From: an uncultured Actinomycetes bacterium
GTDB lineage: Bacteria; Actinomycetota; UBA4738; HRBIN12
DNA length: 64,000 nt
NCBI GenBank assembly: GCA_963700855.1
Contig: CAVOYV010000001.1
Location: 853,881 to 917,880, forward strand
Reading direction: 5' to 3'
Shown: positions 34,161-46,237 of the stretch, piece after piece
How positions within the stretch are numbered: position 1 is the first letter of the stretch
Layout: the number at the start of each line of letters is the position of its first letter
Made by a program: the position numbers and the translations under genes
The notes under the pieces: model-generated
Told to the model about the DNA's origin: nothing
Database searches by the model: none
The model's input: only the letters and a program-made list of their open reading frames with translations

Positions 34161-36545
34161 TCACCCTGCGCGCAGCGTCGCCGAGAGCTCCGACGCCAAT
34201 CGCTCCACGATCCGGTCCACCGCGATCTGCGCCTCCTCGTCCGTGAGGGTGCGGTCGGGGGCACGGAAATCGACCGCGAAGGCCAGGCTCTTCGTGCCCG
34301 GGGGCAGGGATCCGCCGCGGAACACGTCGAACAGCTCGCAGGCACCGAGCAGCTCTGCACCCGCCTCCTCGAGGGCGCGCTGGACGTCGCCGGCAGGGGT
34401 GTCCTCCGGGAGCACGAACGCGAGGTCGCGCCGAACCGGGGGGAACCGGGGCACATCGCGGAGCGCGACGATGCGCTCGGAGGCGGTGAGCAGCGATCCG
34501 AGGCCGACCACCACGACGGCGACCCGTCCCTCGATGTCGAGACCCTGGGTGACGCGAGGGTGGATCTCGCCCATGACGCCGACCGGACGGTCCTCCACCA
34601 GGACCTGGGCGGAACGCCCGGGATGGAACGGACCCTGCGGCACGTCGCCCAGCGACCAGCCGCTGACGCCGAGGTCGTGGAGCAGGGTCTCCAAGATCGC
34701 CTTCGCGTCGAGAGCGTCGAGGTCTCGGCGATCGGCCGCCCATCCGGTGCCGGCTGGCCCGCAGAGCACCGCACCGGCCTTGCGGAGCTGGACGAAGGGC
34801 TCCTCGTCGACGCCGAGCCGGAAGGTGGCCCCCACCTCGAACAGTGCCACTCGCTCGACCCCTGCGGCTTGGTTACGCGCGACCCCTCTCAGCAGACCGG
34901 GTGTCAGTCGCGTACGCAGGAATCCCTCTTCCGCCCGCAACGGGTTGGCGACCGGCACGGCGTCGGTATCCCCGAACATCGCGAGGTCCTCGGCCGAGAC
35001 GAACGGCGCCGGCCGGATCTCGCGCAGCCCCGCCCGACGCAGCGAGGCCTTCGCGCGCCGGGCGAACGCGTACTCTGGTGGCAGTCCCCCGGCATGGGGC
35101 GCACGCGGGAGGGTCGACCCGACGTGGTCGTATCCCTGGATCCGCACGACCTCCTCGATCAGGTCGACCTCGCGGTCGATGTCGGTGCGGTAGCTGGGAA
35201 CCTCGACCTCGATCACGTCGTCGTCGGTTCGGTGAACCATCCGGAGGGTCTCGAAGACCTCGACCGCCGCCGCCGTGTCGACCGGATAGCCGAGCAGCGC
35301 GCCGGCCCGGGATGCCCGCATCGACACGGAGCGCCGCGCGGGCGCGGCACCGGCCTCGGCGACACCCGCGAGGACGGTTCCGCCGCCCCACTCGACGATC
35401 AGCTTGGCGCACCGTGTCGCCGCGGGAACGACGCCCTCGGGATCGGTGCCGCGCTCGAACCGGTGGGAGGCCTCGGTGTGCAGGTCCAGGCGACGACCGG
35501 TCAGGAGGACCCCGCCACGCGTGAAGTAGGCGCTCTCGAGCAGGACGTTCGCGGTGTGCGAGGAGACCTCGGACGACCGCCCACCCATCACGCCTGCGAT
35601 CGCCACCGGCTTGTCGATGTCGCAGATCAGCAGGTCGTGGTCGGTGAGCACACGCTCGACGTCGTCGAGGGTCGTGAGTCGCTCTCCCTCGGTCGCCTCG
35701 CGGACGACGATGCCCGGTCCTGCCAGGCGGTCCATGTCGAACCCGTGCAGAGGCTGCCCCATCTCGAGCATCACGTAGTTCGTCGCATCGACGATCGCGT
35801 CGATCGGACGCATCCCCGCGGCGGTCAGCCGCGCCTGGACCCACAGCGGCGATGGACGGTGCGACACGCCCCGGATCACCCGAGCGACGTAGCGTGGGCA
35901 CGCCTCGGGGGCGTCGATCCGCACCGTGGCGACGTCGGCGGCGCGTTCGTCCGTCTCTGCGATGCGCAGATCCGGCTCGCCCAGTGGCACCCCGGTGGCG
36001 GCGGCGACCTCGCGGGCCACACCGTAGACGCTCAGGAAATCGGGGCGGTTGGGTTCGACCTCGATGTCGAGGACGGCGTCGCCGAGGCCCAGCGCCGACT
36101 TGAGATCGACCCCCACCCCGAGCCCCGTGTCGTTCAAGATCGCGATCCCGCCGTGATCCTGCGACACGCCGAGCTCACGCGGCGAGCAGAGCATCCCGTT
36201 CGACACGACGCCACGGATCTCGCGCGCCCCCAAGGGATCGGGCAGCGCGGGGACCCGCCCTCCGGGCGGCACCCACGACACGAGGTCTCCCGCGACCATG
36301 TTCCGCACGCCCACGACCAACTCGACCTCGCCGGAGCCGTGCTGGATCCGCGCGACGCACAGGGTGTCGGAGTCCGGGTGGTCGCGGACCTCGAGCACGC
36401 GCACGACGACCACGCCCTCGAGACCGTCCCATGGCCACTCGACCCCTTCGACCTTCACCCCACGCTTCGTCATCAGCTCCGCGAGGTCGTCGGCGCCCAT
36501 GTCGGTGGGCGCGTACTCACGCAGCCAGTGCAGCGGGACCCTCAC
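34161..36545 (-). CDS. pheT: phenylalanine--tRNA ligase beta subunit
   Basis: HPDSDTL, SNGMLCS, PNRPDFLS, VDATNYVMLEMGQPLHGFD, RFERG, RRDLAF. Confidence 0.97.
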   Translation of the reverse strand: MRVPLHWLREYAPTDMGADDLAELMTKRGVKVEGVEWPWDGLEGVVVVRVLEVRDHPDSDTLCVARIQHGSGEVELVVGVRNMVAGDLVSWVPPGGRVPALPDPLGAREIRGVVSNGMLCSPRELGVSQDHGGIAILNDTGLGVGVDLKSALGLGDAVLDIEVEPNRPDFLSVYGVAREVAAATGVPLGEPDLRIAETDERAADVATVRIDAPEACPRYVARVIRGVSHRPSPLWVQARLTAAGMRPIDAIVDATNYVMLEMGQPLHGFDMDRLAGPGIVVREATEGERLTTLDDVERVLTDHDLLICDIDKPVAIAGVMGGRSSEVSSHTANVLLESAYFTRGGVLLTGRRLDLHTEASHRFERGTDPEGVVPAATRCAKLIVEWGGGTVLAGVAEAGAAPARRSVSMRASRAGALLGYPVDTAAAVEVFETLRMVHRTDDDVIEVEVPSYRTDIDREVDLIEEVVRIQGYDHVGSTLPRAPHAGGLPPEYAFARRAKASLRRAGLREIRPAPFVSAEDLAMFGDTDAVPVANPLRAEEGFLRTRLTPGLLRGVARNQAAGVERVALFEVGATFRLGVDEEPFVQLRKAGAVLCGPAGTGWAADRRDLDALDAKAILETLLHDLGVSGWSLGDVPQGPFHPGRSAQVLVEDRPVGVMGEIHPRVTQGLDIEGRVAVVVVGLGSLLTASERIVALRDVPRFPPVRRDLAFVLPEDTPAGDVQRALEEAGAELLGACELFDVFRGGSLPPGTKSLAFAVDFRAPDRTLTDEEAQIAVDRIVERLASELSATLRAG

Positions 36546-37597
36546 GAGGCCGCCCCGAACTGCTCGAGGAACCGCACGTCGGTGTCGACGAGCATCCGCA
36601 TATCGGGGATCGAGTACTTCAGCAGGGCGATCCGCTCGATCCCCACGCCGAACGCGAAGCCCGTGTAACGCTCACTGTCGTACCCGCAGTTCTCCAAGAC
36701 CTGCGGGTGGACCATGCCGGCGCCGAGCAACTCGATCCAGCCGTTGCCGCAGACGCGGCATCCCACCCCGTCGCAGATGAAGCACGACACGCCCACCTCA
36801 GCCCCGGGCTCCACGAACGGGAAGTACGCCGGACCGAGACGGACCTTGCGGGTCTCACCGAACAACCCGCGGGCCATGGCCTCCAGCGTCCCCTTCAGAT
36901 CGGCGAACGTGATGCCCTCGTCGACCACGAGCCCCTCGACCTGATGGAACACGGCGAGGTGCGTGGCGTCGGGGCTCTCGCGCCGATAGACGCGCCCGGG
37001 GGCGATCACGTACACGGGGGGGGGCTGCGACTGCATCGTTCGGATCTGGACCGCGCTGGTCTCGGTCCGGAGCAGCAGCTCCGGGTGGCCGGGGATCGCC
37101 ACGTACAGCGAGTCTTTCATCGTGCGCGCCGGATGATCCGACGGGATGTTGAGCGCCTGGAAGTTGTGCCAGTCGTCCTCGATCTCCGGTCCTTCCGCCA
37201 CCCGGAACCCGAGGCGGGTGAAGACCTCGACCACCTCGTCCTCCACCAAGGTGAGCGGATGGAGCGATCCCTCGGGGAGGCGGCGGCCGGGCAGGCTCAG
37301 ATCGACCCGGTCGGCATCGAGCAGCAGGCCTTCGGCTTGGGCGCGGAGCGCGTCGCGGCGGGCTTCGAAGCCTTCCTGCAGGGTCGCCCGGACCTCGTTC
37401 GCGAGACGGCCCAGCTCACGCCGGTCATCCTCTGGGAGCCCTCCGAGGCTCCGTTGTACCTCGCTGAAGGCCGACTTCCGGCCGATCACCGCCACCTGCG
37501 CGGCCTCGAGATCGTCGAGCGTCGTGGCCGCGGCGGCGAGGGCCAGGCCCCGATCCCGTTCGGCATCGAGGGTGTGGCGCATCTCGGCGGCGTCCAT
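36542..37597 (-). CDS. pheS: phenylalanine--tRNA ligase alpha subunit
   Basis: GSLHP, NFQALN...HPAR, LRTETS, GRVYR, FHQVEG, YFPFVEP, GFAFGVGIER. ATG at 37597; TAGACT at 37606..37611. Confidence 0.97.
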   Translation of the reverse strand: MDAAEMRHTLDAERDRGLALAAAATTLDDLEAAQVAVIGRKSAFSEVQRSLGGLPEDDRRELGRLANEVRATLQEGFEARRDALRAQAEGLLLDADRVDLSLPGRRLPEGSLHPLTLVEDEVVEVFTRLGFRVAEGPEIEDDWHNFQALNIPSDHPARTMKDSLYVAIPGHPELLLRTETSAVQIRTMQSQPPPVYVIAPGRVYRRESPDATHLAVFHQVEGLVVDEGITFADLKGTLEAMARGLFGETRKVRLGPAYFPFVEPGAEVGVSCFICDGVGCRVCGNGWIELLGAGMVHPQVLENCGYDSERYTGFAFGVGIERIALLKYSIPDMRMLVDTDVRFLEQFGAAS

Positions 37598-37639
37598 GGT
37601 GGGCGAGTCTAGCAACCGGGTTTCGGCGCCCCTGCGCGC

Positions 37640-39061
37640 TCAGGCTGGCAAGGGCAGCTCGACGTGGAGCGATAGCTCGCCCCCGTGGACCTCGGCCCAC
37701 GCGCGCCCTCCCTGGGCTTCGGCGACGCCGCGTGCGACGTACAGACCGATCTTGCTCCCGCCCCCCTGACCGGGTCGGCGGGGACGGAAGAGACCCTCGG
37801 CCGCCTCGTCGTCGAGGTCGACGCCCGCCCGCGTGGCCACCAGGTGCACGGTGTCGTCCCGGCGTTCGGTGCGCACCTTGATCGAGCCCTCGGATCCCCA
37901 CCACACGAGGGTCTCAGCGAAGGACAGCACCATGGTCTTCATCCGTGTGGGGTCGAGGAAGAACGGCCCCGGATCTCCCTCCCACTCGATCGGAGGATGC
38001 TCCGGGTCGCGAGCCTGCATCTGCGCCAGCCCGGTCACCAGGTCGCCCAGGTCGGTCTGGTCGGGGAACAGGTCCAGCGCACCGGCCGCCACGCGCGCGG
38101 CGTCGACGAGCAGGCGGACGATCTGATCCATCCGATCGGCGTCGTGGACGATCCCACGGAGCATCAGTTCGCGCTGGTCGTCGGACATCTGCTCCCAGCG
38201 TCGTTCGAGCGCGTACCCGAACCCCTTCATCGCGGTGAGCGGCGATCGGATGTCGTGGGCGGCCGCGGCGATGAGATCCTCCAGCTCCGCGCCCCGACCG
38301 ACCCGGCGCCGCGCATGATCGAACAGGCAGACGGTGGCGGCGGCGGCTAGGTTCAACGATTCGGCGGCACCTTCGTGCGGCACACGCACGGTCACGTCGG
38401 CGAGCGACGCCACGTCCTGCGGGAGCCCGTGGGCCTCGTTCCCGAACACGAACGCCACGGGTCCGGACAGGTCGGTCGAGTACAGGCTCTCGGCGCCGTG
38501 CGCGTCCATGGCGAGGACCCGGTATCCGAGACCCCGCGCGTGCTCGATCGCTCCGGCGGCGTCGGCGTCCCGGACGATGGGCAGGTGGAACACGGACCCG
38601 GCAGACGCTCGCACCGTCTTCGTGTTGTAGACGTCGACCGAGGTCGCCGTGAAGACGACCCCGCTGCCTCCCGCGGCGTCCGACGACCTGAGCACGGTCC
38701 CGGCGTTCCCCGGGTCGCGGACCTCGTGCAGGATCGTCAGGCACCCCTCCGCGGGGAGCGCATCGAGCCCCACGTCGACGAACGGTGCGATCCCCAGCAG
38801 CCCTTGCGGGGTGACCGTGGAGGTCAGCTTCCGCATCAGGTCCTCGCCGACGTGGTGGACCTCCACGCCCGCCTGCGAGGCGCGGATCGCCCACTCGTCG
38901 AGCGGATCGACCACGAACAGGGTCTCGAGCCGCTCGGCGGCGAGCGCCTCGCCGACGCCCTGCGCTCCTTCGACCAAGAACCGACGGTCCCCCTCGCGGA
39001 AGGCTCGCTTCTTGAGACGGATGGCCGCGGCGACCCGCGGGTTCTTGAGGCTGGTCAGCAC
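37640..39061 (-). CDS. TrmH/SpoU RNA methyltransferase fused to a HisKA plus degenerate HATPase_c module
   Basis: SPOUT motifs RDPGNAGTVLR, FGNEAHGL and ESLNLA (about 38310..39061). These continue without a stop into AHDIRSPLTAMKG...LFRP...SKIGLYVARGVAEAQGG. Confidence 0.88.
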   Translation of the reverse strand: MLTSLKNPRVAAAIRLKKRAFREGDRRFLVEGAQGVGEALAAERLETLFVVDPLDEWAIRASQAGVEVHHVGEDLMRKLTSTVTPQGLLGIAPFVDVGLDALPAEGCLTILHEVRDPGNAGTVLRSSDAAGGSGVVFTATSVDVYNTKTVRASAGSVFHLPIVRDADAAGAIEHARGLGYRVLAMDAHGAESLYSTDLSGPVAFVFGNEAHGLPQDVASLADVTVRVPHEGAAESLNLAAAATVCLFDHARRRVGRGAELEDLIAAAAHDIRSPLTAMKGFGYALERRWEQMSDDQRELMLRGIVHDADRMDQIVRLLVDAARVAAGALDLFPDQTDLGDLVTGLAQMQARDPEHPPIEWEGDPGPFFLDPTRMKTMVLSFAETLVWWGSEGSIKVRTERRDDTVHLVATRAGVDLDDEAAEGLFRPRRPGQGGGSKIGLYVARGVAEAQGGRAWAEVHGGELSLHVELPLPA

Positions 39062-39100
39062 GCGGACCCCCCGGAGCTCCGGGCGTTCGGAGCTACGGGC

Positions 39101-39106
39101 GAGTCT
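39101..39106 (-). promoter_or_regulatory. -10 element TAGACT for the TrmH-kinase fusion gene; leader hairpin at 39074..39093
   Basis: agtcta on the plus strand, in the rplT/trmH intergenic gap. Same hexamer as before argF, pheS and metK. Confidence 0.5.
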
Positions 39107-39134
39107 ACGGGCGCGGGAGGTCGCGGCGTGGGAT

Positions 39135-39497
39135 TCAGGCCGCAGCCGAGGCGGACTTCACCGTCTCAACGAGCGATGCGAAGGCCTTTGGGTCGTTCAC
39201 GGCGAGGTCGGCGAGGATCTTGCGGTCGACCTCGATGCCGGACGTCTTGAGGCCGTTGATGAACCGCGAGTACGAGATGCCGTTCGTCCGGCATGCGGCG
39301 TTGATCCGGGCGATCCACAGCCGGCGGAACTGCGCCTTGCGGTCTCGCCGATCGCGGTAGGCATAGACGCCGGAGTGCTGGACCTGCTCCTTCGCGGCGC
39401 GGTACCGGATCCGGCGGGAGCCGGTGTAGCCCTTCGCCGCCTCGAGCACCTCGCGGCGCTTCTTCTTCGCGTGGACGGAACGCTTCACTCGGGCCAT
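39135..39497 (-). CDS. rplT: 50S ribosomal protein L20
   Basis: MARVKRSV...AKGY...YAYRDRR...[12 protein letters not shown]...YSRFI. Confidence 0.98.
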
Positions 39498-39501
39498 CGG
39501 G

Positions 39502-44648: not shown

Positions 44649-45578
44649 CTACTCGGCGCGACGGTCGACGGCGAAACTCGAGCCGGGCTCGCGCTTCGCG
44701 AAGGACTTCATCTCGGTCGCGACGGCGACCGCCTCGCCGTAGTGGGCGAACCGGCGCTTCGAGGTCATCGCGATGCCGACCGAGATGGCGACGAGGGGAA
44801 CATCCTGCAGGACGCCCTTGCGGTCCTCGACACGGACGAAGCCGCGCTCGAGGTCCTCGGCCTCGTAGAAGTCCACGCGGCCCTCGTCGAAACGCTCGCA
44901 GATCCGCTTCGCGACGTCCTCGGCGACGTCGGGGCCAACCACCGCGACGAAGTCGTCGCCGCCGACGTGGCCGATGAAGCCCTCGCTGCCGGCTCCCTCG
45001 ATCACCGCGTCCTGGATGATCCGCGCGGTGGCCTGGATCAAGCGGTCCCCGCGGACGAACCCCTTCTGGTCGTTGTAGGCCTTGAAGTTGTCGAGGTCGG
45101 CATAGAGGACGGCGAACTCGTGCTGCTCTCGGACCTGGCGCTCGATCTCCTCCTGGATCCGGATGTTGCCGGGCAGGCCCGTAAGCGGCGAGAGGTTCCG
45201 CATCTCCTTCGCGCGCCGCAACGTGCCCTTCACCCGTGCGAGCAGCTCGATCGGATCGAACGGCTTGATGATGTAGTCGTCGGCGCCGGACTGCAGGCCC
45301 GTCACCTTGTCGGCCGACAGGGCCTTCGCGGTCAGCATGATGATGCTCGTGTTCGCGGTGGTCGGGTTCTTCCGCAGGCGTTGGGCGACCTCGAAGCCAT
45401 CGATGCGCGGCATCATCACGTCGAGCAGGACCAGGTCGGGGCGAAGCTCGCCAGCCCTGTCGAGCGCCTCCTGTCCGTCGCCGGCGACCGCGACGTCGTA
45501 CCCGGCCGAGCGGAGGTTGACCTCGACGAAGCGAGCGATGTCCGGATCGTCGTCGACGACGAGGATCGTCTCGGGCAT
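44649..45578 (-). CDS. response regulator receiver plus GGDEF-family (GGDDF) diguanylate cyclase-like protein
   Basis: REC: ILVVDDD, DVMMP, MLTA, KPF. Then SPLTGLPGN, DLDNFKAYND and GHVGGDDF. The ATG overlaps the rpe stop. Confidence 0.92.
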   Translation of the reverse strand: MPETILVVDDDPDIARFVEVNLRSAGYDVAVAGDGQEALDRAGELRPDLVLLDVMMPRIDGFEVAQRLRKNPTTANTSIIMLTAKALSADKVTGLQSGADDYIIKPFDPIELLARVKGTLRRAKEMRNLSPLTGLPGNIRIQEEIERQVREQHEFAVLYADLDNFKAYNDQKGFVRGDRLIQATARIIQDAVIEGAGSEGFIGHVGGDDFVAVVGPDVAEDVAKRICERFDEGRVDFYEAEDLERGFVRVEDRKGVLQDVPLVAISVGIAMTSKRRFAHYGEAVAVATEMKSFAKREPGSSFAVDRRAE

Positions 45579-46237
45579 CAGCGAGCCTCCGCCGCGACCG
45601 CGGCGATCGCCCGTGCCGCGCCCACGGGGTCGGGCTGACGGAAGACGCCGCTGCCCGAGATCAGGATCGTGGCACCGGCATCGACCGCGCGTTTCGCGTT
45701 GTCGATCTTGATGCCCCCGTCGATCTCGACGTCCACCGAGAGACCGCGTCGATCGATCTCCGCGCGGATCACCTCGGTACGTCCCCAGACCTCCGGGTTC
45801 AGGACCTGGCCGCCCCATCCCGGGGGGATGCTCATCAGCATCACGTCGTCGATCTCCTCGAGGTACGGGACGACGTCCTCGATCGGCGTCTCCATGTTGA
45901 GGGTGAGCCCGACCCCCAAGCCAACGCCCCGCGCCTTCCGGATCGCCGGCTCCGGCTCGGGGACCGCCTCCAGGTGGAACGAGATCATGTCGAGACCGGC
46001 GTCACGGAGCTGCTCGAACTGCTGCTCGGGCGCGTCGACCATGAGGTGACCGTGGAGCGTCCGCTCGGTCACGGGGCGCAACGATCCCACGACGACGGCC
46101 CCGAAGGAGATCGGGGGTGCGAAGTGCCCGTCCATGACGTCCACATGGAAGACTTCGGCGAAGGGCTCGACGAGCTTGACCTGCTCGCCCAGCCTGGCGA
46201 AGTCGGCGGCGAGGATCGAGGCGGACAGCTTCCCCAT
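45578..46237 (-). CDS. rpe: ribulose-phosphate 3-epimerase
   Basis: SILAADF, HVDVMDGHF, HLM, MSIPPGWGGQ, EIDGGI. Confidence 0.95.
   Translation of the reverse strand: MGKLSASILAADFARLGEQVKLVEPFAEVFHVDVMDGHFAPPISFGAVVVGSLRPVTERTLHGHLMVDAPEQQFEQLRDAGLDMISFHLEAVPEPEPAIRKARGVGLGVGLTLNMETPIEDVVPYLEEIDDVMLMSIPPGWGGQVLNPEVWGRTEVIRAEIDRRGLSVDVEIDGGIKIDNAKRAVDAGATILISGSGVFRQPDPVGAARAIAAVAAEAR

Follow-up and report, generated by a model that had tools for sequence, protein, structure and literature searches.

The orphan histidine kinase OhkA is a studied regulator of development and antibiotic production in Streptomyces, for which we found the signal named in no report. It works there with the orphan response regulator OrrA (SCO3008), an activator of wblA (PMC9739842; bioRxiv 10.64898/2026.01.30.702861). 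In S. coelicolor, OhkA is SCO1596 (PMC9739842), and pheS and pheT are SCO1595 and SCO1594 (PMC10771440). The SPOUT (SpoU/TrmH) RNA methyltransferases, in turn, are obligate dimers (PMC9380741). Here we analysed a stretch of 64,000 nucleotides (the window) from an uncultured Actinomycetes bacterium (assembly GCA_963700855.1, contig CAVOYV010000001.1, positions 853,881 to 917,880), in which a single gene joins a TrmH-family methyltransferase to an OhkA-type kinase module whose ATP-binding residues have been replaced. From the sequences of this gene and its relatives we propose, with a probability of about 55%, that its product acts on OrrA without ATP, as a phospho-acceptor or phosphatase tethered to an rRNA methyltransferase. 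The parts of the gene, in window coordinates, are listed below; DHp stands for the dimerisation and histidine phosphotransfer domain and CA for the catalytic and ATP-binding domain.

37640..39061, minus strand: whole fused gene; GTG start, 473 residues plus stop codon, no internal stop.
38792..39043, minus strand: N-terminal L30e-like/MRM3-like RNA substrate-binding domain, residues 7-90 (Pfam PF22435, 3e-13; the fold matches RlmR, RlmP and SmMTase).
38300..38764, minus strand: SPOUT (SpoU/TrmH) 2'-O-methyltransferase catalytic domain, residues 100-254 (Pfam PF00588, 1e-34, residues 110-247; conserved N119, R125, E209, S235 and N237).
38285..38308, minus strand: short Gly-rich junction RVGRGAEL, residues 252-259, from the last SPOUT helix to the DHp; its length differs between orthologues.
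38084..38293, minus strand: DHp (HisKA) helical hairpin, residues 257-326, with the H-box AAHDIRSPLT and the OhkA-type motif RWeqMsDdQR (Pfam PF00512, 4e-10, residues 260-326).
38255..38257, minus strand: codon (CAC) of His269, the phospho-acceptor position by alignment.
37652..38062, minus strand: pseudo-CA domain, residues 334-470, a GHKL fold with its ATP-binding residues replaced (Pfam HATPase_c, residues 383-472, 9e-6; HK853 alignment; fold).

The Pfam matches follow one another along the 473-residue protein as an L30e-like RNA-binding domain, a SpoU/TrmH methyltransferase, a HisKA domain and a weak HATPase_c domain. The SpoU_methylase family (PF00588) is assigned with 119.9 bits against a cut-off of 29.7 and HisKA (PF00512) with 39.9 bits against 26.9, while HATPase_c, at 26.6 bits against 26.4, barely exceeds its threshold. 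The initial annotation of this DNA had noted that the protein lacks a PAS or GAF input domain, and neither family was indeed present among its Pfam matches. In an AlphaFold2 model built on 32 orthologues (mean predicted local distance difference test score of 88), the last SPOUT helix spans residues 237-254 and is followed by a DHp hairpin with helices 257-291 and 294-326, and then by an alpha/beta CA-like domain. The linker of the modelled protein is thus only a few residues long, since the SPOUT helix ends at residue 254 and the first DHp helix starts at 257, and His269 sits 12 residues into this DHp helix. In the alignment of the 32 orthologues, the segment between SPOUT and DHp measures anywhere from about 9 to about 35 residues and is rich in Gly, Pro and Ala.

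The fusion is real, far beyond chance. The source genome is a metagenome-assembled genome (MAG), 82% complete and in 8 contigs, and it could be objected that a lost stop codon or an indel has joined two genes in this assembly. The same uninterrupted frame was nevertheless recovered from well over 100 independent genomes belonging to 8 families, as well as from thousands of metagenomic proteins, and purifying selection acts across the junction. Because the intact frame recurs in independent assemblies and is under purifying selection, an assembly or sequencing artefact is very unlikely, to the point of being negligible. A match was present in 31/31 related genomes in a whole-genome search and in 150 of the 151 sampled genomes of the same class, with identities of 43-100% (1 order, 8 families, 56 genera). 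Most of these class matches consist of one uninterrupted frame covering residues 1 to about 471, and most of the shorter ones end at contig ends; among the class matches shown, an internal stop was seen only in one TrmH-only match (G107, one TGA). A word-indexed protein search returned about 8000 matches, of which the best 120 are all 468-488 residues long, cover 98-100% of the query, share the same architecture and come from Actinomycetota MAGs, where they are annotated only as "TrmH family RNA methyltransferase". The order infC-rpmI-rplT-[fusion]-pheS-pheT is kept in most of the loci examined, with a few having extra DNA on one side of the gene. These results uphold both the single methyltransferase-kinase frame and its position between rplT and pheS, as first annotated.

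TrmH is found alone at the locus in three genera, one (g22) within family f1 and two (g50 and g56) within family f7. As their sister genera carry the fusion, these cases are best read as secondary losses of the kinase module. No stand-alone copy of the DHp-CA module was encountered among the short representatives inspected from a search of 1.84 billion proteins; those representatives were fragments of fused proteins that begin within SPOUT motif 3 or within its C-terminal helix, or that are frameshifted. The initial annotation knew of no earlier account of such a protein, and our literature search likewise found no published description of the fusion or of a TrmH-OhkA gene pair.

Some individual orthologues have peculiarities of their own. 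Two of them (L024:4167 and L038:4998) have the conserved N-terminus (LITS.. and RISS..), but their aligned start position has none of ATG, GTG and TTG; a canonical start is first met 35-46 codons downstream, which suggests that a non-canonical start codon is used. In another locus (L051, G160:C1:469609-480798), infC, the TrmH-kinase gene, pheS and pheT are all split into several frames over about 6 kb, so that it looks like an error-rich stretch of assembly, not like pseudogenisation of the fused gene alone.

We then compared the diagnostic ATP-site positions, in HK853 numbering, between the 32 fused proteins, 18 separate kinases found at the same locus and 12 paralogous kinases of the source genome. 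Both Asn residues of the N-box (N376 and N380) are lost in 32/32 fused proteins, with Ser, Thr, Ala or similar residues in their place, and the Asp of the G1 box (D411) is replaced by Arg (R411), again in all 32. The central Gly of the G2 box (G443) has become Lys or Arg in 31/32 (K437 here), K383 has become Trp in 31/32, and Y384 is now Trp, Phe or His (W386-W387 here). The ATP lid is moreover shortened by 4-6 residues. In contrast, the N, G1 and G2 residues are kept in 18/18 separate locus kinases, and in the 12 paralogues as well except for one Thr at N376. The HATPase_c scores of the separate locus kinases range from 87 to 108 bits, compared with the 26.6 bits of the fused protein. Thus, of the hallmarks of class I HisKA kinases, the fused protein has the DHp H-box and the GHKL fold but not the ATP-binding N, G1 and G2 boxes; a G2 remnant (GGGSKIGL) and the F-box are still recognisable. 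Accordingly, the C-terminal half should not be read as a working histidine kinase: of the 32 fused proteins, all have lost the N-box and G1 residues and 31 the central G2 Gly. Since the N-box, G1 and G2 residues are gone, this half is predicted to be a pseudokinase, with no ATP-driven autophosphorylation. Of the residues that took their place, W387, R411 and K437 have in turn become conserved in the fused clade, which points to a new function gained by the former ATP pocket.

The DHp domain has kept its own signature. Residues H269, D270, R272 and P274 of the H-box (H269-D-x-R-x-P) are invariant in the aligned fused proteins, the class-wide mean pairwise identity of the DHp being 51%, and the OhkA-type motif RW..M.D.QR that follows the H-box is retained. 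At DHp interface positions S264, G271, F272, T275, M291 and D298 (HK853 numbering), which govern partner choice in HK853, the fused proteins are largely OhkA-type, unlike the paralogues of the source genome. Among close relatives, the ratio of nonsynonymous to synonymous substitution rates (dN/dS) is 0.01-0.15 for the DHp, the lowest of the four domains, 0.06-0.24 for the SPOUT domain, 0.15-0.26 for the N-terminal domain and 0.11-0.29 for the pseudo-CA. Judged by such ratios, neither of the two C-terminal domains (DHp and pseudo-CA) is decaying.

As regards the methyltransferase half, N119, R125 and E209 are invariant in the 32 orthologues, at least 90% of which also have S235 and N237. The first three are equivalent to N117, R123 and E206 of B. 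subtilis YsgA/RlmP, residues that were picked for mutagenesis as critical in other SPOUT enzymes (PMC9380741). By sequence, this half is thus intact, with all its catalytic motifs. The nearest solved structures are an rRNA methyltransferase of S. meliloti (SmMTase), T. thermophilus RlmR (Um2552), RrmA, B. subtilis RlmP (Gm2553), AviRb and mitochondrial MRM3, all of them well ahead of E. coli RlmB both by sequence and by Foldseek. The template modelling scores (TM-scores) given by Foldseek are 0.83-0.87 for RlmR and SmMTase, and 0.81-0.87 when RlmP is included, which places this half within their fold. The source genome also encodes a separate RlmB equivalog (C6:158764-159810, plus strand; TIGR00186, 190 bits against a cut-off of 160). 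Its third SpoU-family protein is an unassigned enzyme of TsnR/RlmB-like type (C7:84584-85384, plus strand). Given its greater similarity to RlmR and RlmP than to RlmB, and the presence of a distinct RlmB in the genome, the fused enzyme is likely to be a 23S rRNA 2'-O-methyltransferase acting on a site other than G2251; our best guess for the target region is the A loop.

To place the C-terminal half, we searched it alone against 400 genomes of the phylum. Outside the class, its sole matches were ordinary kinases with 27-38% identity. When 18 of the best of these were examined, 18/18 lay at the same locus and 17/18 stood between a separate TrmH gene and pheS; at the remaining locus, the kinase was present without TrmH. 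A scan of named genomes gave the same picture, with 18 MAG loci fused and with TrmH and kinase genes separate and collinear in Streptomyces, Nonomuraea, Streptosporangium, Planomonospora, Microtetraspora and a Nocardioides MAG. The initial annotation had stated that some actinomycetes have trmH and a separate sensor kinase as neighbours here, and these loci bear this out. Since SCO1596 adjoins pheS (SCO1595), the locus kinase is, by position, the OhkA orthologue. For a phylum-wide tabulation of OhkA and OrrA, profile scores were of no use: they fail to separate OhkA orthologues from paralogous kinases, and the paralogues outscore the fused module. The separate locus kinases occur in two forms. 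The first has PAS, HisKA and HATPase_c domains in open frames of roughly 350-390 residues (PAS in L055 and L071). The second, seen in family f9, is a bare DHp-CA protein with open frames of about 231-281 residues, which keeps its ATP boxes and has no PAS.

A maximum-likelihood tree was built from the DHp-CA modules of the 32 fused proteins, the separate locus kinases, the 12 other kinases of the source genome and HK853. All 32 fused modules fall into one clade (support 100/99) with a long stem of 0.83 substitutions per site, and its sister group is formed by the sensor-less kinases of family f9 (support 99/90). The locus kinases as a whole, fused and separate, are split from the 12 other kinases and HK853 (support 100/99). 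The fused module therefore resembles the OhkA group in its place between trmH and pheS and in its clustering with the locus kinases; it departs from that group in having neither the PAS input domain nor an intact CA, the boxes of which are lost. We considered whether a second canonical OhkA elsewhere in the genome might phosphorylate the module in trans, and rejected this idea: the fused gene is the sole OhkA-type module of the genome, and the 12 other kinases group apart.

The sister group also suggests how the fusion came about. At two of its loci, the kinase start overlaps the TrmH stop (ATGA in L069, TGATG in L061), and the kinase begins just 13 residues before the phospho-accepting His; these kinases (L069:5977-6669, an open frame of 231 residues, and L061, 345 residues; family f9 genomes G432 and G372) are sensor-less with intact ATP boxes. 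Because of this overlap, a single-base shift would give the exact fusion junction. The most likely source of the fused module, as read from these sequences, is therefore a sensor-less, translationally coupled kinase gene that was joined to TrmH through loss of the TrmH stop codon, and the most parsimonious order of events would be loss of the PAS followed by fusion. Within the sampled sequences, the tree indicates a single origin of the fusion, in the common ancestor of one uncultured class. The fusion of a conserved gene pair is a good argument for joint action of the methyltransferase and the kinase.

We looked at OrrA as a possible partner. The source genome has an OrrA orthologue outside the window (C1:226764-227417, plus strand) with 73% identity over 218 residues, in which the acidic pair and the phospho-acceptor Asp, Thr and Lys motifs usual in receivers can be made out by eye; its interaction with the fused protein is a prediction. 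The flanking open reading frames, also judged by eye, are comF-like, HPF-like, orrA itself, a gene resembling those of thiamine pyrophosphate (TPP) enzymes and a SecA-like gene, an arrangement that resembles the Streptomyces order; in Streptomyces sp. NBC_00988, the OrrA orthologue lies downstream of mtrAB-lpqB and adjoins hpf. OrrA orthologues with 74-98% identity were present in every fused genome tested, and family f9 has them too. OrrA is in general an unusually conserved response regulator, its orthologues being 66-98% identical within the class and 59-77% identical in other classes.

The genera that lost the module give a mixed answer. The g22 genomes (G046, G107 and G112; loci L047-L049) are reduced genomes of 1.3-1.6 Mb, nested within a fused family and with TrmH alone at the locus. 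No OrrA orthologue was found in g22, the best match having 40-43% identity in two genomes and the third having none at threshold, and these genomes encode 2-4 receiver domains compared with 22-34 in equally small fused genomes. That the module was lost together with OrrA and with almost the whole two-component repertoire is consistent with a part played by the module in signalling. Two other candidate connections were set aside. A response regulator with receiver (REC, residues 85-197) and GGDEF (residues 211-310) domains is encoded at 44649..45818, minus strand, about 6 kb from the fused gene and beyond the riboflavin operon; in relatives, it is not found within the conserved locus. Classical histidine phosphotransfer (Hpt) domains were detected in 11/21 relatives, and that of the source genome is inside a hybrid kinase; so patchy a distribution speaks neither for nor against a relay and says nothing on whether the fused protein replaces a missing Hpt protein.

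The mechanism that we propose combines these elements. The fused module would be unable to autophosphorylate from ATP, and its DHp would still dock OrrA, the partner regulator of OhkA. His269 could then take the phosphoryl group from the phosphorylated receiver, the module thus working by reverse phosphotransfer, as a phosphate sink or as a phosphatase, and might possibly pass this phosphoryl on in the manner of ChpT or Spo0B. The DHp dimer would be tethered to the SPOUT dimer, so that engagement of the methyltransferase with the immature 50S subunit, or with S-adenosylmethionine or S-adenosylhomocysteine (SAM/SAH), may plausibly modulate access to the DHp; in short, the methyltransferase would plausibly gate the action of the DHp on a response regulator. 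The outcome would be a link between ribosome maturation and OrrA signalling. Several observations weigh against this proposal. Support for the OhkA-OrrA pairing, as cited in PMC9739842, is confined to genetic and two-hybrid studies in Streptomyces. The locus itself encodes no response regulator. In genera g50 and g56 the module is gone, whereas OrrA and 37-41 receiver domains are still there, so that the association between module and OrrA is not strict. The residue at H+4 is Ser (Leu in three members of family f8), while HisKA phosphatases canonically have Thr or Asn. With its variable length and its flexibility, the linker speaks against the rigid helical coupling by which sensors typically act on a DHp, and it weakens the case for allosteric coupling. 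Finally, the likeness to ChpT is by analogy only: the Pfam HPTransfase profile gives E = 0.069 (13.3 bits against a cut-off of 22.9), and no ChpT was among the top 50 Foldseek matches, so membership of that family was rejected.

Some of these same facts would suit a purely structural role, in which the DHp is only an extra dimeriser for the dimeric SPOUT enzyme and the basic CA-like domain (R411, K437, R373) binds rRNA or pre-50S particles, with no phosphoryl chemistry. Loss of the ATP site in all members, the conservation of new Trp, Arg and Lys residues where the pocket used to be, the missing response regulator at the locus, the obligate dimeric state of SPOUT enzymes and the flexible linker are all compatible with such an appendage. 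However, a coiled-coil dimeriser would have no need of H-box residues, and H269, D270, R272 and P274 are invariant although the DHp is only about half identical across the class; the DHp has moreover the lowest dN/dS of the four domains and interface positions that remain OhkA-type, and TrmH functions without the module in three genera and across the rest of the phylum. We therefore regard a structural role as possible, if doubtful. The initial annotation had suggested that the methyltransferase may act as the input domain; on this view, the protein would be an active sensor kinase whose ATP-dependent autophosphorylation signals the status of SAM/SAH or RNA. The layout does resemble an input domain followed by DHp and CA, and the protein still has an intact H-box, the GHKL fold, the G2 remnant and the F-box. 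Nevertheless, the N-box Asn, the G1 Asp and (in 31/32) the central G2 Gly are replaced, residues that the 30 control kinases keep bar the single Thr already mentioned, the lid is 4-6 residues shorter, and HATPase_c is at the noise threshold. With the ATP site lost, control of autophosphorylation by the state of the methyltransferase cannot apply as it was stated, and the flexible linker argues against rigid coupling as well; an active kinase is in our opinion quite improbable. Between these alternatives, we retain an ATP-independent phospho-acceptor or phosphatase acting on OrrA. A bolder extension would make the TrmH-family (probably A-loop) methyltransferase an input or co-sensor of the OhkA-OrrA pathway throughout Actinomycetota: binding of the enzyme to immature 50S subunits, or its SAM/SAH state, would set the phospho-state of OrrA, which in Streptomyces controls wblA, development and antibiotic production. 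In this class, the fusion would have hard-wired the coupling and turned the kinase into an RNA-gated, ATP-independent phosphatase or phosphotransferase; this generalisation is tentative, and we consider it unlikely as a whole.

The immediate surroundings of the fused gene in the window are as follows.

39102..39107, minus strand: TAGACT, a -10-like hexamer, 41-46 nt upstream of the GTG start (from the sequence).
39135..39500, minus strand: rplT, the upstream neighbour (infC-rpmI-rplT operon).
36542..37615, minus strand: pheS, the downstream neighbour.
34161..36545: pheT, after pheS.

A TAGACT -10 element belonging to the fused gene had been proposed at the outset. The hexamer is present, and TAGACT or TACACT occurs at about the same distance in 12/19 close relatives; a strict generic sigma-70 scan, however, found no full promoter upstream of the fused gene, only this TANNNT-type hexamer being conserved. 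Between this hexamer and the start codon, at 39071..39082, lies a perfect 12-nt palindrome, CCGGAGCTCCGG, which could be a hairpin or an operator. A "ccggag" element resembling it recurs in the leaders of several relatives.

These results bear first on Streptomyces, as they nominate the methyltransferase SCO1597 of S. coelicolor, for which the searchable literature gave no match, as the functional partner of OhkA: the two genes adjoin phylum-wide, are translationally coupled in one lineage and are fused in a whole class. They offer for genetic testing the hypothesis of a link between two-component signalling and the modification or maturation of ribosomes. The fused form, for its part, would be a natural, class-wide case in which a histidine kinase became an ATP-independent DHp/pseudo-CA module and its pocket acquired newly conserved residues, and it bears on the evolution of pseudokinases. 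Each half comes from a known family, an RlmR/RlmP-type SPOUT enzyme on one side and an OhkA-type HisKA protein on the other, and it is the fusion itself that is undescribed in the literature we found.

Compared with described systems, the N-terminal half is closest to RlmR, RlmP/YsgA and MRM3, SPOUT enzymes of the 23S rRNA A loop, with which it shares the L30e-like and SpoU domains, the same catalytic residues, 30-36% sequence identity and TM-scores of 0.81-0.87. Unlike the fused protein, these enzymes are stand-alone proteins of 250-290 residues (MRM3 has only a targeting extension), and none has a C-terminal DHp-CA. For the C-terminal half, the best match among solved structures is HK853 of Thermotoga maritima (E = 1e-12, TM-score of about 0.77), in an alignment that spans the whole of DHp and CA; its N376, N380, K383, Y384, D411 and G443 are however replaced in the fused protein, and the lid is shorter. 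ChpT of Caulobacter and Spo0B of Bacillus are histidine phosphotransferases made of a DHp-like bundle and a CA-like domain that does not bind ATP. The fused module is like them in logic only, with a phosphorylatable DHp His kept and a degenerate CA; it differs in that its nearest relatives are true kinases and in that a phosphorelay context is not evident. The closest system overall is OhkA/OrrA of S. coelicolor. The fused module has the same position, between the TrmH gene and pheS, belongs to the same HisKA subfamily, with the motif SH(E/D)(I/L)RSPLT..KGF..L..W..(F/M).D.Q(K/R) and shared DHp interface residues, clusters with the OhkA-type locus kinases in the tree, and is accompanied in its genome by a 73% identical OrrA orthologue in a similar gene order. 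In contrast, the OhkA-type kinases sampled are separate proteins, most of them with an N-terminal PAS and all of them with intact N, G1 and G2 boxes, whereas the fused protein has no PAS, has lost its ATP site and carries the module in covalent linkage with the methyltransferase.

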